In this document: positions 11,490 through 51,152 of the stretch, piece by piece | Layout: each line of letters starts with the position of its first letter | How positions within the stretch are numbered: position 1 is the first letter of the stretch | NCBI GenBank assembly: GCA_036172245.1 | Contig: JAYWIR010000007.1 | Span: 4,278,001-4,342,000, forward strand | DNA: 64,000 nucleotides | Direction of reading: 5' to 3' | From: Raillietiella orientalis | Taxonomy: Eukaryota | Made by a program: the position numbers and the translations under genes | Notes under the pieces: generated by a model | Seen by the model: the letters and a program-made list of their open reading frames with translations, nothing else | Database searches by the model: none | Told to the model about the DNA's origin: nothing

Positions 11490-14060
11490 TTTCTTCTACA
11501 AAAAATAAATGAACCGGTTCGGTTGCGAACACTATGGTTCCCAACCGAAGACAAAAGAACTTCAAGGGTCCACTGACACGCAGGCCGGGATATCGAAAAG
11601 TTCGGAACGGGGAGGGGTATTGGGGACCACAAAATTAATTCAAAAAAACACCAGGGAGTTACGGAACGAACGGGGATGGGGAATGAGGGGAAAAAAGAAT
11701 AAAAAAAAGAGGCAGAGGGCAAGGGTTACCGGTGTCCGCAGTTCCTAGTTCTCCTCAAACCGGTTCTGCATGCCGGAGATCCCTTACTTCACTTCTTATA
11801 CCAGGTGAGACCACCTTGAGGACCTCCTGCATGTAGGCAGCTACCATCCCGGTGACCTCCCTTTGCTGCGTGATCGTCTCGAGCACATGGAGGGCCATGG
11901 AGGCCTGCATCCGTGCCATCGCACGGATGCAGCCCATGGTCCGCGCCAGTCCGGGAGTCCTCCCGTCGATAAGAACCGCCTCATCGGGTCGAAGGCGGTG
12001 TCCTCCTGGTGCAGGAGAGCTGCTGCCAGCCTCTGGCACAGTTCCATGAGGGCGCCGCAGTCCAGGATCAGGTGCGGCAGGATCAATTCCGCCGACCCCG
12101 CACCTGGCGCCGTTCGGGGGTGCAGCCCCTGAGGAAACGCGGTCGACTGCTCGTTGCACTGGAATGTCCAGCGGAGGAAGAGCAGCACGGCCTACTTCCA
12201 GGAGAGGGTAAACACTGAAGTGTCCAAACAATATGGAAGGGACTGCGAGTTCGTCGGGGCAACACTCAAAAGTTGAGTCTCCACGGTAGGAGTCCCGTCA
12301 CCAAAGCACGCCGAGTGGCAGCATTCTCCAAATCGCGCGTCTTCCAGCCTCCAAGGAGTTTCGTCCATCCCGCGATGATGCAGGAAAAATTCCTTCTCCC
12401 TGTCGTCTCTTGCCTTGAGGGCACACAGCGCTGCTACGAGGGGTGTGCAACGGCCAGGGTTTACCACTCCACCACGTCGTGCATTGCCACTTCCAGAAGC
12501 TGTGGCAACAGATGTCGCAGGGGGCAAAGATCTTCAGCGCTCATTCGTGGAATGTAGCCCAGGACTCAACAGTCTCCTGCCGCCAATCATTAAAGTTCGT
12601 TGGGCGGCAGGAGATCCACGGTTGGGCTTCCAGTAGGCAGGCGAGTTGCCTCAGGAGGAAGCCGGATCCCCGCATCCTGTAGCAGGAGCCCCCCTTCACT
12701 GCCGGTGCATCTCCGCAGGACGAAGCGTGCTGGCACACACAAGGGGGAAGTACACAGCTTGGCTCAGAGTGCCAGAATTTGGAACGGCACTTGCAGCCCG
12801 ATTCTCTCCAGCGTCAGGATGCCCAAGTCGACATCCCGTCACGGAGCCGCCAAGTCTTTGAGGCGGATACTAGACCTCTCAGGTCCCCCGTTTCTCAGCA
12901 GGCGTTGAACCCGCAGCTTTGCTTCGTAGGGGGGCTATGAAGATGCTCCAAATTACAGCCCGTTCCGCAATTTGAAGTTGCCATGGAGGAACGGGCTGAG
13001 AGCCAACTCAACCTTCTGAAGGCAGTCCGACCACGCTTCGGCAGCACTGAAGACGCCCAGTGGAACACCAAGGTACCTTAAGTACCTGCCCGTCGGGACC
13101 TGCAGGCGGACCCAGCCGGACTGCCCCCCATGGCGCACCCCTCTTGCTCCTGCTCACATGCACGCACGCTCCTCGACGAATAGGCTCGAAGACATCCTTG
13201 AAGCTGGACGCCAGAGCGGACATGCGTAAAAGGAGAAACAGGTCGTCTTCAAAGGCCTCCACGGCCAGTGTGCCCGGGCAGGAGCCTGGCAGGTTAGCCA
13301 GCATCAGCCTATACGCTCTGGTTACCAACTCGAAGTAGATGCAGAAGAAAAAGGGGCTTAAACTGTCTCTTTGCCTGATGCCCCTGCGCACGGGAATACC
13401 GCACACGTGGCAGCCGCTGAAAGAAACACAGGTCAGCGCGCGGCGCCAGCAGGAGCTCAGGTAGACTGAGAAGTGTGCTAGAAGACCGAGGCGTCCTAAG
13501 AGATACAGAAGAAGCTCCTAGTTGACGTAGTCGAGCACCCCGTGGAGATCGACTGCGATCGCCAAGGCACCGGGCGTTCCCTCTTGCCGTCTACGCCGAC
13601 TACGCTTGCCTGCGGTAGCAGCTCTTTCCGTTGCCAGGCTTTGCTGTGCGACCCAATCCTGAAGCGCGAGCCACCTACGTGCGCAAAGGAGGATGGCATC
13701 CCCGGACCGCAACGTGAGTCTGCTCCGGACTTACCAGGAACTCGGCGATCCTTCCTAGCCGCGCAACCCACAGCTTCGAAAACAACCTGACGTCCGAGTT
13801 CACCAAGGTGATCGGACGCCAGTTGTTCACATGGAGCAAGTCTCCGCCTTTCGTCAGGAGACGCACCTTCGCTGAGCGAAACGAGGTGGGGATATCTCCC
13901 GCCTCCCTCATCAGCGACGAGAGGTTCAGCACTAGGGGGATGAGTTCCACCGCGAAGCACTGAGAGAACTATGCGGGCAGGTCATCCTCGCCTGGCGCCT
14001 TCGTCTCTTGAGCCCCGCGAGGTTTCCCAGGGAGACGGGTGCCTTCCGGAGGAGAAGGGT
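11490..14060 (-). mobile_element. Decayed L1/Tx1-clade non-LTR retrotransposon with RT domain and C-terminal zinc finger, subfamily 1 (copy D)
   Basis: Ordered RT motifs across stops and frameshifts: KAPGEDDLP, NNWRPITLVNSDVRLFSK, AIAVDLHGVLDYVN, GIRQRDSLSPFFFCIYFE, AFEDDLFLL, LRYLGVPLG, then LPHLILDC..LLHQEDTA. T-rich 3' UTR with hairpin at 11518-11549. Confidence 0.93.
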
Positions 14061-29100: not shown

Positions 29101-30969
29101 CGCGGGAGAGAGTCACCCGGTGCCCATTGATGATTCAGTGGCCATTACTGCCTCTTGCACTCCATCTGATAACCTTCCGCCGCAATTAGGATAAGCGTAT
29201 TCCGACCCACTTCCCATTTCGAAAGCAGCGAGGGCCCAAGGAAGAGAGGGAGGAACGCGCGCACACGGAAACGATAAGAGGAGGAAAGTGACACAACCGT
29301 AACGCAAAAAGCATATCGCTGTCGCCTTTCGCCTCTTTCTGTCTGCGCGCCCGCACGTCCGGCGGTCAGTGGCGCGCGATCGAACGTCATCTGCACGCGG
29401 CGGCGCGTCCGAACTCACGGATTTCCGATCGCGCAGGGGGACGTAACGGGGGGGGGGGGGGAGGAAAGTGGGATATGCGCGCGCGTGCTGGATGGTGCCA
29501 CGAGGCCCCGCCTCCGAACGCGCAGTGGCTGCTTCCCTTGGTGGACGAGGGAGAGGGGGGAGGGGGGCAGGGGAGGTTGTGAAAAGAGAAAAGATGAGCC
29601 TTCCTACTTCGCCGGGTCTCCTCATCCAGGACGTGGTGGGATGCTCGCAGGCGCTCGTGGGCGAGGGCGGGCGCCCCAGTGGGGAAAGGGGGGGGAGGAG
29701 GGGCGGAACTGCCGGCGGTTCGTGATTCGGGCGGGCTTCCGGGCCACCGTGTGGTGGCGGAGGGTCCCGGGCGTCGCCGAGGCGCGGACGGGGCAGACGG
29801 CGGCGGCGTGTGCAGACTTGTTCCCTGGCCACCTGGGGGGAGGGCGAGCGTCCACGTAGCAGGCCGAGGGGACGCTTTCGGAATACCTGCCGAGCGGAAG
29901 AGCGTTCCTTTCCCGCCCCCGCCGCCGCATTGTTTGGCCTCGCTCAGGGCCTCCGTAATTTGCATCATTGTTGCCGGCGGCGAATCGGAAGCAATTTGCC
30001 GCTCTCGGGATATAAAAAAAAAAAAAGGAAAAAGAAAGCCGGCTGGAACCTGCATCGGCATTGTTGGAAATCCCCCCCCCCCCCGCGCCTCGGCACGGGG
30101 GACGCGCCGCCATGCTCGCGGAAACGCAGGAAGCAACACGTGAAGCGAAGGGAGGGAAAGGAACGCACGCACGATCCCCCCCAAAAAAAAGGAAAAATTC
30201 GGGAAGAACCGGTCAGACCGAGTTGCTCTTCCTCGTGCTCCCGCTGGCTTCAGCTTCTGTAGGGTTGCGTGCCTCTCTGAGATTCGGGGAGGAGCTAGGC
30301 CGCCTCGGTGGTCCCGCTTCCCCCGTGCTTGCAGGGTGGGGGTGGGAGCCCCCCTTCGTTTCCGGGCAGGGTGGAATGCGCGTCCGTCTCCCGGGCGGTG
30401 CCCGAGGATGGGTGCCTGCGTTTCTGGAAGGCGCGCGCGACCCTCATCCCCGTTCCGGAGCGCCAGCGGAACGGTTGGAGGGAGGGGGGAGGGAACTAGG
30501 CCCCGGTTCCATTTTCTTGCTCCGGCGATCTCCGAGGACCGCCCCCCAGCCTTCCGTCAGGTGGACCCCGCAGAATCCGAGGACCACCGCTCGGCCTAGT
30601 CCAACAGGTAGCGCGCATCCGCACCGCTCTTGCACCGTCCCAGATCGAGAAGATCGCCTCCTCTCGGAGCGAGGAGAACAAAAAAAAAAATGGACGAAAG
30701 GCAGGGAAGGGGAGAGGGGTCGCCGGAGCCCGCCATTTTCTCGAGCCGTACTTCCCCCCCCCCCCAGAAGGGAAAAGGAAGCTCCCCCCCCCCTTCTTCC
30801 CCCCCTCCCCTCCACGAAACGTTTTTCAATCCGCGTAGCCTTGGCCGGCTACGCGTGCGGGGGCGACGCGAAGCAGCACGTCGGAAAAAGTACGCATCTG
30901 CGTCACATCCGTACACAAATGCACTTACTGCTCGTATGCGGCGGAGGAGACGATTCACTTTCGTGCGTC

Positions 30970-31180
30970 GAGCACGTCATCGGCGTGACGTAACGAGCCG
31001 GCAGCGCGCGCGCTCGGGAGGGAGGGACGGAGAGAGCGAGAGAGAGGGAGGGAGGGAGGGGGGGAGGGGCGAAAATGCGTGTGTGTGCGTGCGTGCGTGC
31101 TTGTTGGGATTTGTCTGCCCGAACAAGGAGAGGCGGCTCTGATAAGGCGTTGCGGGACCCTTTCATTGTCATTCGGTTGC
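30970..31180 (+). promoter_or_regulatory. Candidate promoter of the predicted gene at 31271
   Basis: CRE-like sites ACGTCA (30974-30979) and TGACGTAA (30986-30993), a GA tract, and initiator-like TCATTG/TCATTC (31163-31174) about 100 nt before the ATG. Confidence 0.35.
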
Positions 31181-31270: not shown

Positions 31271-31394
31271 ATGGTGGCGCTGAACAGATTGTGCCTCGCG
31301 TCTGCTGTGCCGTTCGGGTACGGCCACCTACGGCCGAACGACTTGGAGGGAAGGCTCATCTGCGTGGTTCTGGATGGAAGGAGGACTCCGGAAG
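31271..31394 (+). CDS. Exon 1 of predicted 204-aa protein (candidate BH3-only, Bim/Bmf-like)
   Basis: ATG at 31271, open frame MVALNRLCL..RRTPE, donor AAG|GTAGGC at 31394/31395. Phase 1 matches the next exon. Confidence 0.55.
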
Positions 31395-31844
31395 GTAGGC
31401 GGCTCGGCGGGCGGCGCCAGCGGAGGAGGCCCACGCAACCCCACCCCGCCCCTCTTCCCCCGCCGGTTTGCTCGCACCCCGCCCATGCCACCGCTGGGGA
31501 GCTCGTCGGGGGGGGAGGGGGCAGTTTCGCGGGACCCTCCCTCCCTACCCCCACGGCTTCGTTGGCGGCGCTTCGATGGCTGGCAGGAAGGACGGTTTCC
31601 CCGGGGCGCGGAAAAAACGAAGCAGCCAGCCTCTCGAAGGAAGGACGCTCGGTCGTGGGAGAGTGACCCCCTGGATCGCCCTCCTCACTCGCGAGTTTGA
31701 AGAACGGAAAAGAAAAGGGGCGGGCGGGCGGGTCCTCCGGAGGAAAGGGGAGGGCAGCTTGACCCGGTCCGAAGGCTTCCTTCCGTTTTTTTTGTTTTGC
31801 TTTTCGACACTCCCCTTACCTTCCCCCCTTTTTTCTTTTTCCAG

Positions 31845-32170
31845 CGAGCGGCAACAGCATCATCGTCAATGCACCGGACGCCGTCTTCGGGTTGACTCCT
31901 CCGTCGTCTCCAGCCTCCCCGTGCTCTTTCACTTTCCCGGCGATACCGGCGCTGACCGTGAACTCGTGGACGCAGACCGACCAGGAACTGGGAAACCACT
32001 GCCACCTCTGCCAAGGAAGGTGCTGCGGCAGCAAACCCTCTGAGGACCACGAGGAAACGACGACGGCGGAGGGCAAGGCCGCGATGGGCGTCTGCTCGGA
32101 GTGGCAGACGGTGGACGAGCTGCTGGACTCGGTCGCGGAAGAGCTGTCCAGAAAGGCGGAGCAGCATCCG
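31845..32170 (+). CDS. Exon 2 of predicted 204-aa protein (TPPSSP, TQT, BH3-like helix)
   Basis: Long polypyrimidine tract ending TTTCCAG| at 31844 and donor CCG|GTACGC at 32170/32171. Open, G/C-ending codons, normal amino-acid composition unlike the surrounding spurious ORFs. Confidence 0.72.
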
Positions 32171-32268
32171 GTACGCGGGCGGGAAGGGGAAGAAGCGTGC
32201 GTTTTTCGTGCGTGCGTGCCTTTGCGTGGCTCCGGCCGGGACGATCTCCCTATCGAGGATTCTCGTAG

Positions 32269-32433
32269 GAGCGGGAGGAGACGCTGCCGCCGCCCGCCTC
32301 GTGCTCGCACCGCCCCTGCGACGTCGCGATGCTCCCCAACTGGTGGAGCATCGTCTTCAAGGCGATCTACATCTTCGCAAAGCTCTACCTCAAGAAGTGG
32401 CTTCAGAGGGCACTGATCCCCCGGCCCGTTTAG
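32269..32433 (+). CDS. Exon 3 (terminal) of predicted 204-aa protein, hydrophobic/basic tail
   Basis: Acceptor CTCGTAG| at 32268 after a 98-nt intron, phase 0 compatible. Encodes EREETLPP..PNWWSIVFKAIYIFAKLYLKKWLQRALIPRPV, TAG at 32431-32433. Confidence 0.65.
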   Translation, partial: EREETLPPPASCSHRPCDVAMLPNWWSIVFKAIYIFAKLYLKKWLQRALIPRPV

Positions 32434-33191
32434 ACAAGACGTCGCCTCCGTTGCCGCCCCGTCGCCGCCGCACGGGGAGGTGACGCGGGGCACCAGCGGG
32501 CGCGTGACCATCGCCGAAGCCCCTCCAGATACTGCTGCTGCCGCCGCCGCCGCCTCCGTTGCCGCTGGCCCTAGCCTGCGGTTCCCCTCCCCTTCCCCCC
32601 CCCGCGTCGCCCCCCGGCTCCAGCCACCCACCCACCCCCAGGACACTTGTGATAACGCTGTAGATTTCTTGAAGTCTCGTGCTCTTCGCTCATCAAAGCA
32701 GAAGTGATAGAAGAAGAAGAAGAGGAAGAGGGAGAAGAAGCAAAGCACTTTCGTTCGTTCGTTCGTTTCCGTCTTTTCCGGCTTTTTTTGTTTTTGTTTT
32801 TTTTCTTCCCCCCCCCCCCCTCCCGTTTGTTTTCCTCCGAGACTGTGCGAAGTGTTGACCTCGGGTCGAGGAGGGAAAGGGACAAACCGACTGGAGACAG
32901 AAGGAGACGAAGGACAGGAAGAGGACCGCCGCGCGCGCGCGCACGGCGGAAGGAAGCTGCGCGCTCGCCCCGAACGATCTCATGACCTGCCGATTTTTTT
33001 TTTTTTTTTTTTCTAGTCTCCCTTCCACCCCACGCCCCGTCCCCCACCCCCATCCCCTGATCTCCTGCCCTCCCCGGACCCGAAGCCAAGCCGGAATGGA
33101 GTGGCGCGCGTTCGGGCCCGAGAGACCACCATCGACTTGCCCTCGCCGCCATGTTTCCCCTCCCCCTTTTCTGGTTCCGCTATCACTTGGC

Positions 33192-33225: not shown

Positions 33226-36200
33226 TTCATGGTTTGTGTTCCTTCCCCCCTTCTCCTGCTCGGCCCGCGGTCCCTCTCCCTCTTACTCTCTCGTTTGGTT
33301 TGGTCCCCCGCGGGGGTCTGCGTGTGCTTTTCCCGCGACCCCCTCCCCTCCCTTCGGTTCCCGTTCCCGTCTTCGACCCCATTCCGCTCTCGCCGTCTCC
33401 CGAGCTTCAAGCAAGATGGCTTGAAGTCGGACAACCCCCCACGTCTTTCACGCGCGTTCCGCATCGCCCGCGCCGGATGGCCCGCACGGGCGCGTATGTA
33501 CAGAAGGCAAAAGAACGAAGAGAAAAAAAAAAAAAAAAAAAGGAAGGAGAAACTGGGAATAAAAGGATTTTCTGCTTCACTTCAGGAGGAGACTTTTCAT
33601 TCGGCATGCTTCCTGGACGGGGGCGCCGCCGCTCGCCGCCGCGCGCCCCCGCTGGAGGGAGAAGGAGGGAGGGGGAGGAGGGATGCAGCTCTTCTGCGTC
33701 CGGGAGGGCGCCCGTCTCGAGGCGCCGACGTGCCGCTAGGTCGGGCCCGCGCCCGATCCCGGCTCTTCCCGGGATCCTCGGCGCAGCGGAAGGAAGGAGG
33801 AGCAGGTAGTGGACCCGGGATACCAAGTCCCCAGGCAGGGAACAAACACCCCCTTCTGGAGGACCGGAGCAGGGGCTCGGGAGGCGGGAGAGGGGCGAAC
33901 GCCTCGGCCCGGGAGGCGGCGGGAAGAAGGGAGGCGTGCTCTCCCGCTCTCCCTCCGTCGGATGAGGTTGTCCCCCTCCTTCAGACGCGCGAACTCTAGG
34001 AACCGAAGGCCCCTGGGTTGGGGAACCCATGGGTTGAGTGGGGAGGGAGGGACTGACGACCACCCCCGAGGCGCTCGGGAGCGCGCACGTTCCGAGGAGA
34101 GACGTTCCGGTCAAGCGGATGGGACCGCCTCAGGCATCCCAGATGCCCCCAGGGCGAAGTCCGAAGGCATGGGGTGGAGGCGTGAGGCGTCCTGCTCCTG
34201 TCCCCTTGCTCCACCCCACCCTCGCGCCGTACAGGGAGCAGCAGGACGAGAGCGCAACCCTTTCCTCCACCTTCTGTCCGCGGACCACGGCGTCGTGCCA
34301 TCCTTCTTCCGGGAAGAGGGGGCTTCTGCTGCCCTGCGGACGGTCGGGACTGCCCCTTTCCTCCAATCCTCCCCACTTCTTCCCAACCCCATTTCCCCGC
34401 TCCCGCCCCTTGCTTCAAGAACTGCGCGCGAAGGGTGGTGCCCGGCTTGCCACTGCCTTCTCCCGCCCTGATTCCCGTGCGGCTCCCTCTCCCCCTTTTC
34501 CCTTCCTTTTTTTTCGGGAGGGGATTCCAGGAGACCGCTGCCCCCTTTGCGCAGTTGCTATATCCGCGCGCCGAGCGCCCCGTAGGGAAGAGGCAAGGAC
34601 TGCTACCCCTTGCCCTCATGGAATAAGGGCCGGTCTGTCTTCCCTCCCCCACGCTCCCCACGGGATCCTCCTGTCCTTCCCGCGGAGGAGGGTTCCACAG
34701 GGGGGGGGGCAGCGTCGGTGGCTGCCCGAAGGGAACGAGGGAGACGCTCCCTGGACGGTGGGCGCCCGTGGGCACCCCTTCCGCAGCTCCCTTCGGCGGC
34801 GGTACTTGGGCGTCTCGACCGCTGTCCTCCACGCGAGGCGAGTGGGAGCGAAACAGTCGGAGAGGGTTGGTTCTCCAGGGCCCCAGCCGGTCAGACCCAC
34901 GAGGGCCCGCGCGCCCTGCTGGGTGGCCGACGTCCGCGTTCGCCCCTTCTGCAGCCCTCGAGCAGGGCGGTGGCCCCTTCCCGAGCTCCCGTGCTTCCTG
35001 GCAACAGTGAGGTGTGCTCCTGGGAGGGCACGGGCCCCACGTCCCACCTTCTGTGGCTTCCGCGTGCCCTCCGAACTGGGGTCTCCCCCTGATGAAACTG
35101 CGCCCTCACCCCGGCAGCTCTCACGCCTTCAGTTGTTTCTCCAGGATCGTTCACCTGACGTCCCTTCCCTGTTTCCTGGAGTGTTGCATTCGTTGGAGCA
35201 TTCGGGTCACGGGCACCCCCACCGAGAAGGTGGCGGAGGTGCCCTCTCTCTCTCGGACTCCCGTGCTCTGCGGGCGCACCGGTGGACCGTCGTTTCTTGG
35301 TTTTCGCGCCCGTCGCCAGGCAACGAGCGACCTCTGCAGTGGCTGACGCGCGCCCTCCTGACCTGACCCCTTCCCCCACCTGCCCACCCCTTCTCGCAGC
35401 CTTTCCAGGGAACGGCCGGATCGCAGCAGCCACTCACCGCCGAAGGCGCTCGGCCGCTTGCCACGAGTGCGGTCTCGTTCGAGAACCTTCTCCGCCGTTG
35501 CTCCGAACCCCGGACGCGGCGGACGTCGCGGAAAACTCGGCGGCAGGCAGCCTCCTCTCCTTTTTTTGTTTTTTTCTGTCCTTTCCATTTATTTACTCTC
35601 GCCACTTTCCATTCCCCGATCACCTCCTAAGAGGCCGCAGAGCCGAGCGCCGAGACTTTTCCAAGAGACGCGGCGCCTGGGCACACGGAGTCTCCCCCGT
35701 GCACGGAGACAAAGGGCGCCGGCACACACCCAAGAACTTTCCTCCCCGAACGGAGCGCTTCCCTTCGGCTTATCAACTCTCGTCAGAGTTATCGAACTGC
35801 GCTCCAATCAAGGGGGAAGTGTTGTCCAGCTATTCGATTCGCTCCGACCATGTTGGAGTCACTTGGCGTTCCGAGAGGATCGTCCCGGCACCGCAGAAAA
35901 GGAGGAGGGGGGAAGAGGGGGGAACTTCGCTCGGAAAGATGCAAACGCTAATCGGAAAGAAAATCTCCGGCTGGAAACCGACGCAGAGGAGCGCGCGCAC
36001 CCACACTCGGACGGTCGCAAGCCTCGAGCCGTTTCGGAAAGAGCGCGGCGCGCTGGCACCGCAATACGATCGACGTGACAATGGCGCATCGATGGGGGCG
36101 GTCAACGCCCTCTCCCCCACCCCCTCTCCCTCCTCCTCCCCCTCTGCCGTCGGCGGCAGAGCGTCCCTTGCCGCAGATGCCGCGCCATTTTCTTGCCGCC

Positions 36201-39969: not shown

Positions 39970-41315
39970 GCAATCCAAAACAAAGTTTCGCGTTTCCCCG
40001 GAATATTCCTGGGGATGCCTCCGCGTCGGGACGGCGGTCTCAGCCTCCTGACGCTGGAGCGCTTGGAGATTCAGCTGCGATGCCGCACCCTCGCCATCGC
40101 AGCGAAGATGTGGAGCACCCCTTGGTGCGTTCCGGCCCGCCTCTTCGCCAGGCGTGTGTCCCGGTCTGGCCAGAAGATTCGAAGATGCGGCCTACTGCTC
40201 GGGCGCATGGCAACCCTGGCGAAGGAGAACAGCTGGATGGTTTGTAGCCCCGCCAACTCCTCCGCCTGGCTGGAGGAGACTGCTGGCACCTGGGCTAAGC
40301 AAAACCAGAGGAGTGAAGATCCCATGAATTGCCTGCGTGTCGGCCCATACGCCCGCCGCACCCTGCGGGAAATACTTGAATTTCCCGCGAGTTGCACGTG
40401 GGCGGAGACGACCCCCCTTGCTACGGCGATGCCCTTCCTGAGGAGGGCGCTTCACGGCAGCCGGACGCCGAGGTGGCAAGTCTCCTGCCGAATCGCAGGC
40501 AGGGAGAAGATGATCAGCGGCTAGACAACACGAGAACTGGAAGACGCCACGACCCCGAGCGTCCAGCCGAGAGGACTTTTGCGATGGGGCGAGCTGCTCG
40601 CCATCCCCATGGATGTGCTGAAGTGGCCCCCGCTGCTGAAAGAATCCAGGATAATGCCCCTTAAGTGGCAAGAGTCGGCGTTGCTGCTGTTGCACTGGGG
40701 TTTACCCTGCAACGCACGCCGCTTCCACTGGACAAGGGGAGCTGTCGATCCTGAGTGTGCCAGGTGCGGGGAGCGGGAATCGCTCCCCCACCTTCTTGTG
40801 GACTGTGCTGCCCTCCGACCCCTATGGGAACGGTTCGGGGAGACCCTCGGGCTCTCTACGGGCAGTACCCCCAGAGACGTTCTCCGGCTCCTCTTCGTGA
40901 AGGACTCCCTGCAGCCAGCCGCAGCCCTCGCAGCCCTGTGCTGCGTCCGAGGCATCGTGGCGGCCTGGAGCGATGCCAACAACGAAGATCGCAACATCAA
41001 CGAGAGGGACGTCATCCCATATGCTGTTCGCTTCATGCGGAGAGCTGCCGGATGGCCCCAGCTGGGAAACATGCAGACGGACCTCGAGGGCATCCTTCGA
41101 AGGATGGGCCCTCCTCCCAGTGACCAGTGATCCCTTCCCGGCCCTCCAACTTCTTTTTGTTTTCCTTATTTTTTATTTTTTTTATTTTTCCCCCCCCCAT
41201 CCCCTTTCACTGCCGGGGAGAGCCACGCCGGGCTGCGTCCCGGTGTCCCGGCAGGTCCAGTGCCCATGGCCGTGGTGGGGCCTTGTACCACGCAGTGTGG
41301 AGTTTTTTAAATAAA
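39970..41315 (+). mobile_element. 5'-truncated L1/Tx1-like element, subfamily 2 (copy G), nearly intact ORF2 C-terminus
   Basis: ORFs 39955-40524 and 40579-41130 are in frame and split by one TAG, where copy B has Trp. PRRDGGLSL motif, CARCGERESLPHLLVDC, AATAAA at 41310-41315. Confidence 0.9.
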
Positions 41316-50099: not shown

Positions 50100-51152
50100 C
50101 GAGTCCGGAGTTACGGCAGCGACTGCTGCTGCACTCTCACGGAAGGAGCTACTCGCTCCAGGAGACCGCCGTGCTTCCCATCAAGTGATGCGTGGGGCGG
50201 AAAGAACCTCCCTTGCTGCGGCGCCGCGCTCTTCCCGAGGGAGCGTCGTGACGGCGACCTACCGGCGAAGTGAGAGGCCTCCCGCGAGGTGAACTCCAGG
50301 AGGAAAGAACTAGGTGGTTGAACCATGGGCCAGCTCACGGACGCTGCGACCCCACCAAAAGGACTCTCTTGCGCTGGAGCGGACTGCTCGGAATTCCACC
50401 TGAAGACCTCGAGTAGCCGGCCCCCAGTGCTGCGGAAAACCCCCACCCTCCCTCTCTAGTGACAGGGGTCGGCGATCCTGTTGTTGCACTGGGGCCTCCC
50501 GTGCAACGCCCGCTGACGTCGCTGGACGAGGGAGGAAGGAGGCGGACCCGAATTGTGGCAGGTGCGGGGCACGAGAGACCTTCCCGCACCTGCTTGTGGA
50601 TTGCCCTCCGACCCCTGTGGGAGCGCTTTGCCACGACCCTTCCGACTCCCATGGGCAACCTTCTCAAGCGCCCCCTGTCTACGCGAGATGCCCTGACGCC
50701 AGCCGCGTACCTGGCAGCCCTCCTCTACCTAAGTGTGATTGTGGCTGCCTGGAGCACCGCTGGAGGAGATCAGGACGGCAGGCCGGGTGCCATCCACATT
50801 TTGCAGTGCACTTCATGAGGATCGCAGAGAGACGGTCCCATCTGGATGCAATGCTGGAAGAACTTGCCTGCATCCTGGAAAGGACGCAGAGGACGCCCAC
50901 CAGCAGGCAGTGATCCCTTCCCGAACCCCCCAGAAGTTTTTTGTATTCATTTATCTATTTGTTTATTTCATTTTTTGTTTGTTCCATCTCCCCCCCCCCC
51001 CTCTCCCTTACTCTGCTGCCGAGCCGAACCTCGCCGGTCTTCGTGCCTGCTTCTCAGCGAGTTCCATATGTGATGACCGTGGCAGCACCGAGTGTCCAGC
51101 CACGAGGAGCCAGCCACCGCTTCTGTGGGTTCCTTTTCGTTTCAAGGACAGA
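50100..51152 (+). mobile_element. Decayed L1/Tx1-like 3' fragment, subfamily 2 (copy J)
   Basis: Peptides LRWSGLLGIP, ALRPLWERFATTL, DALTPAAYLAAL..IVAAWS match ORF 40579-41130. CAGTGATCCCTTCCCG at ~50909. Confidence 0.85.

Follow-up and report, generated by a model that had tools for sequence, protein, structure and literature searches.

Does the predicted three-exon gene at positions 31271 to 32433 (plus strand) of a stretch of Raillietiella orientalis DNA encode a trigger of apoptosis, and by which route would its product act? The stretch, hereafter the window, comprises 64,000 nucleotides of contig JAYWIR010000007.1, and all features discussed are on its plus strand unless noted. A preliminary description of the locus interpreted the gene as a divergent BH3-only apoptosis regulator of the Bim/Bmf kind. 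We favor, with moderate confidence, a different assignment: a divergent homolog of the Hid-like proteins of the RHG family, i.e., a pro-apoptotic IAP antagonist and not a working BH3-only protein. The earlier interpretation holds in that the gene is very probably an apoptosis trigger with a helix in the BH3 position, but the BH3 has decayed, and the gene appears to be defined instead by the motif AVPF near its N terminus and by its kinship to insect Hid-like RHG proteins.

The gene itself is very probably real. The previously proposed exon boundaries agree with the sequence, as do the GT-AG introns with matching phases. Coding exon 1 (31271..31394) encodes residues 1 to 41 and ends in a phase-1 donor, and intron 1 (31395..31844; 450 nucleotides, phase 1) has a long pyrimidine tract. 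Coding exon 2 (31845..32170), with a phase-0 donor, is predicted to encode a largely disordered segment with a single C-terminal helix; it is followed by intron 2 (32171..32268; 98 nucleotides, phase 0) and by coding exon 3 (32269..32433), which includes the stop codon. The spliced 615 nucleotides encode 204 residues followed by TAG, there is no in-frame ATG within 370 nucleotides upstream of the start, and a genome search found the gene DNA to be single-copy. Third-position GC was 0.76, 0.82, and 0.93 in the three exons, compared with 0.46 to 0.61 at codon positions 1 and 2, and the introns and flanks had no third-position rise (0.56 to 0.66). With a codon model trained on Wnt exons of the same genome, the exons ranked in the top 0.5 to 0.6% of equally long stretches without a stop codon (0.0064 of 10390, 0.0061 of 4275, and 0.0053 of 8744). 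The window is 63% GC and rich in long chance open reading frames, and the acceptor of intron 2 is weak, with a weak pyrimidine tract and three more in-frame AGs in the next 12 nucleotides, as might be expected if the exons were unexpressed chance frames in GC-rich DNA or remnants of a pseudogene. However, the three-base GC periodicity and the codon scores of every exon, the intact frame, the matching intron phases, and the polyadenylation hexamer and microRNA sites described below make that explanation very improbable.

Homologs were found with a degenerate DNA pattern of the insect Hid-like helix, which gave four matches among metagenome loci, three of them eukaryotic and one bacterial. The bacterial match (L038) was a chance match to a regulator and was excluded. 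An alignment of pieces from the three eukaryotic loci led to 66 homologous proteins among 8000 candidates scored. The named homologs are from Daphnia (D. pulex XP_046444153.1, "putative protein TPRXL"; D. sinensis; and D. pulicaria) and are annotated as uncharacterized or TPRXL; we infer that the larger group, which consists of metagenome proteins, comes from other crustaceans. The set shares a leader followed by A[VI]PF, a PPxSP...FxF block, a canonical BH3 (61 of 66 homologs), and a hydrophobic tail. Four of the Daphnia proteins (P0111, P0112, P0216, and P0218, annotated as "putative protein TPRXL" or "uncharacterized serine-rich protein"), together with L037:289-2214, have leader plus AVP, canonical BH3, and a Hid-type tail.

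The N-terminal part of this anatomy is present in the gene. An uncharged, hydrophobic leader of 11 residues (31271..31303) precedes the candidate IAP-binding motif AVPF (residues 12 to 15; 31304..31315), which is followed by G-Y, in agreement with the family pattern A[VI]PF-x-[FY]. AVPF matches the IAP-binding motif consensus A-[KTVI]-[PAE]-[FEISY] as given in Friedrich 2021 (PMC8620624), and its block scored 17.4 bits, compared with a family median of 19.1. A[VI]PF after 8 to 13 residues was found in 22 of the 66 homologs, many of which lack their N terminus; 1 of 20000 shuffles had it there. Homolog leaders have 8 to 13 residues, mostly 9 or 10. The A, the P, and the V or I of the motif are retained in 25 of 25 homologs, a small residue (A, G, N, C, T, or S) directly precedes it in all 25, and position -4 holds a hydrophobic residue (L, F, M, or I) in 24 of them. 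Exon 1 can also be read through into intron 1 (31271 to 31666) as an open frame of 131 codons, which could yield a short isoform that contains the motif, comparable to the S-isoform of Lepidoptera, or may be a chance frame in GC-rich DNA.

A second block is encoded early in exon 2. There, APDAV (31871..31885), which by eye is like the LPD[LVI] of insect Hid-like and Daphnia proteins, is followed by PPSSP-x5-FTFP (31898..31939), a block that itself occurred in 0 of 20000 shuffles; PP[NS][ST]P...FxF is present in 37 of the 66 homologs. Its two parts scored 15.9 bits (PPSSP; family median, 19.2) and 13.6 bits (FTFP; family median, 14.1). A profile built from 29 of the 66 homologs, with the gene left out, scored the spliced product at 8.8 bits (E 6e-5 for one comparison), and 0 of 2000 shuffles scored as high. 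In hhalign comparisons with the family, exon 1 gave E 7.5e-4, exon 2 gave E 9.8e-4, and exon 3 gave E 0.25. An ordered chain of nine family blocks scored 34.7 in the gene, compared with -28.0 +/- 8.8 in shuffles (0 of 1000 as high) and with decoy maxima of 2.4 among 456 genomic frames and 16.9 among 105 Wnt proteins. In Daphnia the gene is likewise divided into three exons (phases 1 and 0), and its intron 2 is seven residues past the BH3, compared with eight residues between the helix and the phase-0 intron in the gene studied here. The likeness to the crustacean family covers leader and A[VI]PF-x-[FY], PPxSP...FxF, helix register, intron phases with intron 2 shortly past the helix (in Daphnia), and a K-box in the 3' untranslated region (loci L036 and L039), whereas the gene differs in its noncanonical BH3, its lack of the basic RKRRR block, its diverged tail, and its length (204 residues compared with about 250 to 370).

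The crustacean family in turn resembles the Hid-like RHG proteins of insects. The comparison with insect rows, which come from the PMC8620624 supplement, was made by eye only. Insect hid-like genes mostly have three exons and encode fewer than 300 residues (PMC8620624). Shared elements are MA[IV]PF, LPD[LI]V, PSSP-x5-FQFP, a helix W-x-x-VG-x-x-LR-x-IA[DE]-x-F, and an LLP...LW...GW/W[KR] tail. The spacing of PSSP-x5-FTFP in the gene equals that of PSSP-x5-FQFP in 20 of 20 hymenopteran rows, and its helix is in exact register with the insect helix. In that supplement, all 20 hymenopteran rows, all 3 dictyopteran rows, and 7 of 8 nonaphid hemipteran rows have W-x-x-[VIM]-G-x-x-L-R-x-I-A-[DEG]-x-[FI] ahead of the tail, and it is recognizable in about 5 of 15 beetle rows, and no BH3-type helix was seen in the dipteran, lepidopteran, or aphid rows. 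By its pattern this helix is a BH3 signature, a term that occurs 0 times in the main text of PMC8620624. Canonical or near-canonical BH3s can be read in Hid-like proteins of bees, wasps, ants, termites, cockroaches, bugs, and some beetles (PMC8620624 S5 to S7 and S9), and to judge from these rows Diptera, Lepidoptera, aphids, and many beetles seem to have lost the BH3. The gene shares with insect Hid-like proteins A[VI]PF near the N terminus, three coding exons with short terminal exons, a length below 300 residues, PSSP-x5-FxFP (as in Hymenoptera) or PPSSPSC (as in Diptera), a W-x-x-V...L..[IV]A[DE] helix ahead of the last exon, a hydrophobic C-terminal segment, and bantam and miR-2 seed sites.

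These seed sites are in the 3' untranslated region, which we infer to be 1130 nucleotides long, up to an AATAAA polyadenylation hexamer (33558..33563) that is the only canonical one in 3.5 kb past the stop codon. A miR-2-family (K-box) 7-mer site, TGTGATA (32648..32654), is followed by a bantam 7-mer-A1 site (32976..32982) and a bantam 7-mer-m8 site (33058..33064). For two microRNA families set by hypothesis and sites spotted by eye before the test, there were two bantam 7-mers where 0.056 was expected (P 0.001) and one K-box 7-mer where 0.017 was expected; none of 2000 dinucleotide shuffles and none of 400 genomic tiles matched both families together. In each of the homologous loci L036 and L039, a perfect K-box, CTGTGATA, lies no more than 50 nucleotides from the stop codon. 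Both the bantam and the miR-2 genes are in the genome, with matching seeds. According to PMC4550278, reaper is a miR-2b target, and a paper on bantam regulation of hid is cited there by title.

Several observations weigh against this assignment. Similarity to the family is, in the sequences compared, motif-level only. Five blocks (basic, acidic, LxL, MLP, and tail) are at chance in the gene, the basic RKRRR, ADDE, and LxL blocks being absent, and held-out family members score 219 to 274 on the nine-block chain. Both the blocks and the seed sites were picked after the resemblance had been noticed by eye, and, taken one at a time, the K-boxes of L036 and L039 do not reach significance (P 0.09 and 0.12). 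The tail has the same position as the family tail without significant similarity (747 of 2000 shuffles scored as high, in line with the exon 3 hhalign value) and has neither the GW nor the terminal Arg of insect Hid-like proteins. Because PPSSP lies before intron 1 in Daphnia and after it in the gene, intron 1 is not strictly equivalent in the two. Searching exon 2 against 1.84 billion representatives returned only one low-complexity bacterial-type repeat protein, exon 3 had no match among sequence representatives, and an Atlas search with exon 2 gave no usable match. Genome searches with two family members, P0129 and P0111, missed the locus itself. In addition, AVPF does not directly follow the initiator Met, being separated from it by the leader with no closer ATG, and the residue at -4 is Cys, as in 0 of 25 homologs. 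The need of IAP-binding motifs for a free N terminus has a structural basis. It is also stated as a requirement in PMC8620624. The host is probably not a neopteran insect and so would lie beyond the family limit set in that paper.

It could be argued from these points that the gene is an unrelated orphan whose motif matches reflect convergence or chance: direct homology searches with its exons gave nothing, five of the nine blocks do not score singly, and the choice of motifs was partly post hoc. However, two independent blocks occur in the correct order and position (0 to 1 of 20000 shuffles each), the helix is in register beside a phase-0 intron, and the seed sites are independent of the protein sequence. 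We regard an orphan gene as quite improbable and homology to the Hid-like family as highly probable. The homology is considered to be real with good probability, distant, and based on the N-terminal half, because exons 1 and 2 score, exon 3 and the tail do not, and the chain is far below that of family members. The null single-exon searches can be attributed to the poor sampling of the host lineage, and Pfam gave nothing meaningful for the exons or for the 29 family members of the profile. Since 22 of the 66 homologs have a leader too, the leader would be a family trait and not a defect of this gene, and since the motif is not adjacent to Met, the gene is set apart from textbook RHG genes as a variant. 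P0129, P0111, and a canonical-BH3 pattern found no better family copy in the genome; the two protein searches cannot exclude another divergent copy because they also missed the locus. Neither the window nor its flanks showed a Met-A-x-x RHG paralog.

The BH3-position helix was central to the earlier interpretation. It comprises residues 128 to 142 (WQTVDELLDSVAEEL; 32102..32146), and the positions previously assigned to the helix, to a TQT motif (31970..31978), and to the C-terminal tail were all correct. The four hydrophobic positions V/L/V/L pointed out earlier, on one face of the predicted helix, are in register with the family BH3 (W-x-x-V-x-x-x-L-x-x-V-A-E-E-L). The conservation anticipated for the helix was found in the register and the hydrophobic positions but not in the family G, R, and D, which 61 of 61 homologs keep without variation and which are replaced in the gene by D, D, and E. 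The BH3 block scored 4.1 bits, compared with a family median of 50.7 (P 0.005), and a local BH3 profile did not score the gene. Its L-D-S-V-A-E does not fit the minimal BH3 definition L-x3-[GAS]-D as given in PMC10107002, to which 61 of the 66 homologs conform. The warning that each motif alone is weak was justified: a loose BH3 pattern occurred in 385 of 20000 shuffles and at four places across all six frames of the window, and TQT, a possible LC8 site, occurred in 320 of 20000 shuffles. Neither TQT nor the tail had the conservation expected of it, TQT being present in 0 of 66 homologs; dipteran Hid has ATQT, by eye, at a different position. Like Bim, Bmf, and Puma, the predicted protein is disordered, with a late helix in the BH3 position and a candidate C-terminal membrane segment; unlike them, it matches no Pfam BH3-only family and lacks the Gly, Arg, and Asp, and the genome searches turned up no Bcl-2 partner. 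Vertebrate Bim, Bmf, and Puma are not known to have an IAP-binding motif.

The canonical BH3 of the crustacean family, as far as its sequence goes, resembles that of Puma, Bmf, and Bim. The family profile had only two matches among 177635 PDB sequences, both Puma BH3 peptides (E 0.36 to 0.38), and the Atlas neighbors of one family member were two arthropod hypothetical clusters and then Bmf, Bim, Puma, and Bik clusters (0.77 to 0.87, with the BH3-only clusters at 0.77 to 0.85, to be read as leads only). Drosophila Sayonara is likewise an arthropod protein with a BH3-like motif, but it belongs to the coiled-coil proteins of PTHR21974 and acquired its BH3 within Diptera (PMC10107002), and the anatomy of the gene is unlike it.

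If the gene were, as first proposed, a functional BH3-only killer acting through Bcl-2-family grooves and held by LC8 through TQT, a Bcl-2 protein would be its target. Searches of the genome with PF00452, TIGR00865, and BH4, in a loose first look that had no positive control for the Bcl-2 family, detected no Bcl-2 gene; the sole PF00452 candidate was a retroelement fragment and was rejected. A BH1 pattern had 21 matches compared with 18 in the control, none of them Bcl-2-like. The same genome search tool did detect BNIP3, LC8, NB-ARC, caspase, and BIR genes, and it is suggestive that the Bcl-2 family may have been lost completely in this lineage. The Trp and four hydrophobic positions kept in register with the family BH3, the segment predicted as helical at low confidence (pLDDT about 53; pLDDT 40 for a single-sequence fold of exon 2), and the presence of LC8-family genes are what a BH3-only function would lead one to expect. 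Some insect Hid-like rows in the PMC8620624 supplement carry the same substitutions, D to E in 7 of 8 nonaphid hemipteran rows and both G to D and D to E in Oryctes, and full decay of the BH3 is therefore open to doubt. Nevertheless, the loss of all three invariant residues, the low block score, the failed local profile and minimal definition, the failure of these searches to detect a Bcl-2 gene when BNIP3 was detected, and the absence of TQT from all homologs make a working BH3-only protein quite unlikely.

Components of an IAP-based route are present. The genome has an IAP with two BIR domains and a RING (contig C15), whose BIR1 matches DIAP1 BIR1 at E 3e-17, as well as an Apaf-1-like NB-ARC gene and three caspase loci. 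We consider it moderately probable that the product acts as an IAP antagonist after unmasking. In the proposed sequence of events, bantam and miR-2 would keep the mRNA repressed, the tail would anchor the protein to a membrane, probably mitochondrial, and a protease would cut the 11-residue leader after a small residue, exposing an N-terminal AVPF that could then bind the BIR groove of a DIAP1-like IAP and release caspases. The ancestral BH3 helix would have decayed, and killing would go through IAPs instead of Bcl-2 proteins because the BH3 is decayed and no Bcl-2 gene was found. Smac is activated by an analogous removal of its leader. Smac/DIABLO and Omi/HtrA2 carry an IAP-binding tetrapeptide behind an N-terminal extension, a hidden motif comparable to that of the gene; each has a far longer presequence, however, and is a folded protein from a different family. 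A small residue at P1 with hydrophobic residues at P4 and P2' suits rhomboid or signal-peptidase-type enzymes, and the Cys at -4 in the gene would suit such cleavage less well.

The tail (residues 171 to 197; 32329..32409) is hydrophobic, amphipathic, and flanked by Lys (hydropathy, 1.35; moment, 0.34), which makes it a candidate membrane anchor. Its moment exceeds those of five homolog tails (0.08 to 0.24). A GH3 label considered for it, by a Grim/Reaper spacing that matches once in the window, was dropped because the pattern was written after the sequence had been viewed and because the tail is positionally Hid-type. GH3 helices can kill and bind mitochondrial lipid, according to PMC7215429, and a true Hid-family homolog might work by such a route, with AVPF masked or rarely exposed, through its amphipathic tail on membranes or by recruiting other IAP antagonists. 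Conservation of the leader as a hydrophobic peptide and the high moment of the tail fit this alternative. However, the A, P, and V or I are kept in all 25 homologs and in this very divergent gene, a retention best explained by BIR binding, so that a motif masked or rarely exposed seems unlikely, although less so than the other alternatives. The conserved leader of an IAP antagonist would imply an activation step that is so far undescribed.

Upstream of the gene, TCATTC (31169..31174), which we take to be Initiator-like, marks a candidate start region about 100 nucleotides 5' of the ATG, a weak signal because the pattern occurs 29 times on the plus strand of the window. Three CRE-like TGACG elements lie 280 to 370 nucleotides 5' of the ATG (30900 to 30990), a pattern with 53 occurrences in the window, and no full p53 or FOXO site was found near the promoter. 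About 200 kb of gene-poor DNA with 60 to 70% GC surrounds the gene, and the IAP and caspase loci have 34 to 40% GC, a pattern of a two-compartment genome. Pfam searches of 150 of 165 long window frames and 95 of 326 candidate frames of the 180-kb flanks, in which small exons would escape, found one gene, a glycosyl hydrolase 31 about 80 kb upstream. About 115 kb upstream, AT-rich DNA has a 1081-codon open frame on the minus strand (L033:3361-6603) with no Pfam match. Four fragments (about 1345-2028, 11755-12297, 40525-41130, and 50404-50913) have a C-x2-C...HL motif of the kind usual at the ends of non-LTR retroelements, and the three of them that were scanned had no Pfam match at E 1e-4.

The 210-Mb genome has Wnt genes and arthropod cuticle domains. 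Its Wnt1 is at most 65 to 66% identical to any match and forms a long branch outside a weakly supported insect-rich group (163 residues, 36 rows), a tree that did not firmly place the host. Searches of the genome gave neither odorant receptors nor odorant-binding proteins, both weak negatives. On a mitochondrial-type contig, cox1 is followed by a sequence that by eye is like tRNA-Leu(UAA), and the order cox1-tRNA-Leu(UAA) is the pancrustacean arrangement. The host is probably of a poorly sampled, noninsect pancrustacean lineage. On the same contig (L017:1746-2310) the tRNA-Leu-like sequence is duplicated, with about 500 nucleotides between cox1 and cox2, and 54 cox1-like matches are scattered through the genome.

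The RHG family has been taken as confined to neopteran insects, as described in PMC8620624. The existence of a crustacean Hid-like family indicates that the RHG/Hid-like family is probably much older than Neoptera. In the open literature, with subscription journals and bioRxiv supplements outside the search, we found no report of crustacean RHG genes, of a leader-masked motif, or of a BH3 in Hid-like proteins, and none of the three is mentioned in the portions of PMC7215429, PMC10886741, and PMC13159474 that were available. Fly apoptosis is framed as under RHG/IAP control, compared with BH3/Bcl-2 control in worms and mammals (PMC10886741), and the BH3 in relatives of the gene hints at a link between two apoptosis switches that are usually held separate.

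One tentative scenario, which we think possible but doubtful, is that a BH3-only gene of arthropods, similar in kind to Bim, Bmf, and Puma but with an IAP-binding motif as well, gave rise to Hid and the RHG family. The crustacean motif would be masked by a leader of 9 to 11 residues and cut free, the leader would have been lost in insects, and in many insects and crustaceans one protein could still act on Bcl-2 proteins as well as on IAPs. The animal studied here would have lost the Bcl-2 family, with its BH3 decayed and the IAP motif kept. If so, it would be a natural experiment, and the gene, as a decayed case, would be useful for asking whether loss of the BH3 tracks loss of Bcl-2. The Daphnia TPRXL-type proteins offer the best experimental entry into the family. 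They are also examples of candidates, open to test, for the BH3-only proteins that arthropods have seemed to lack and for the source of the RHG genes.
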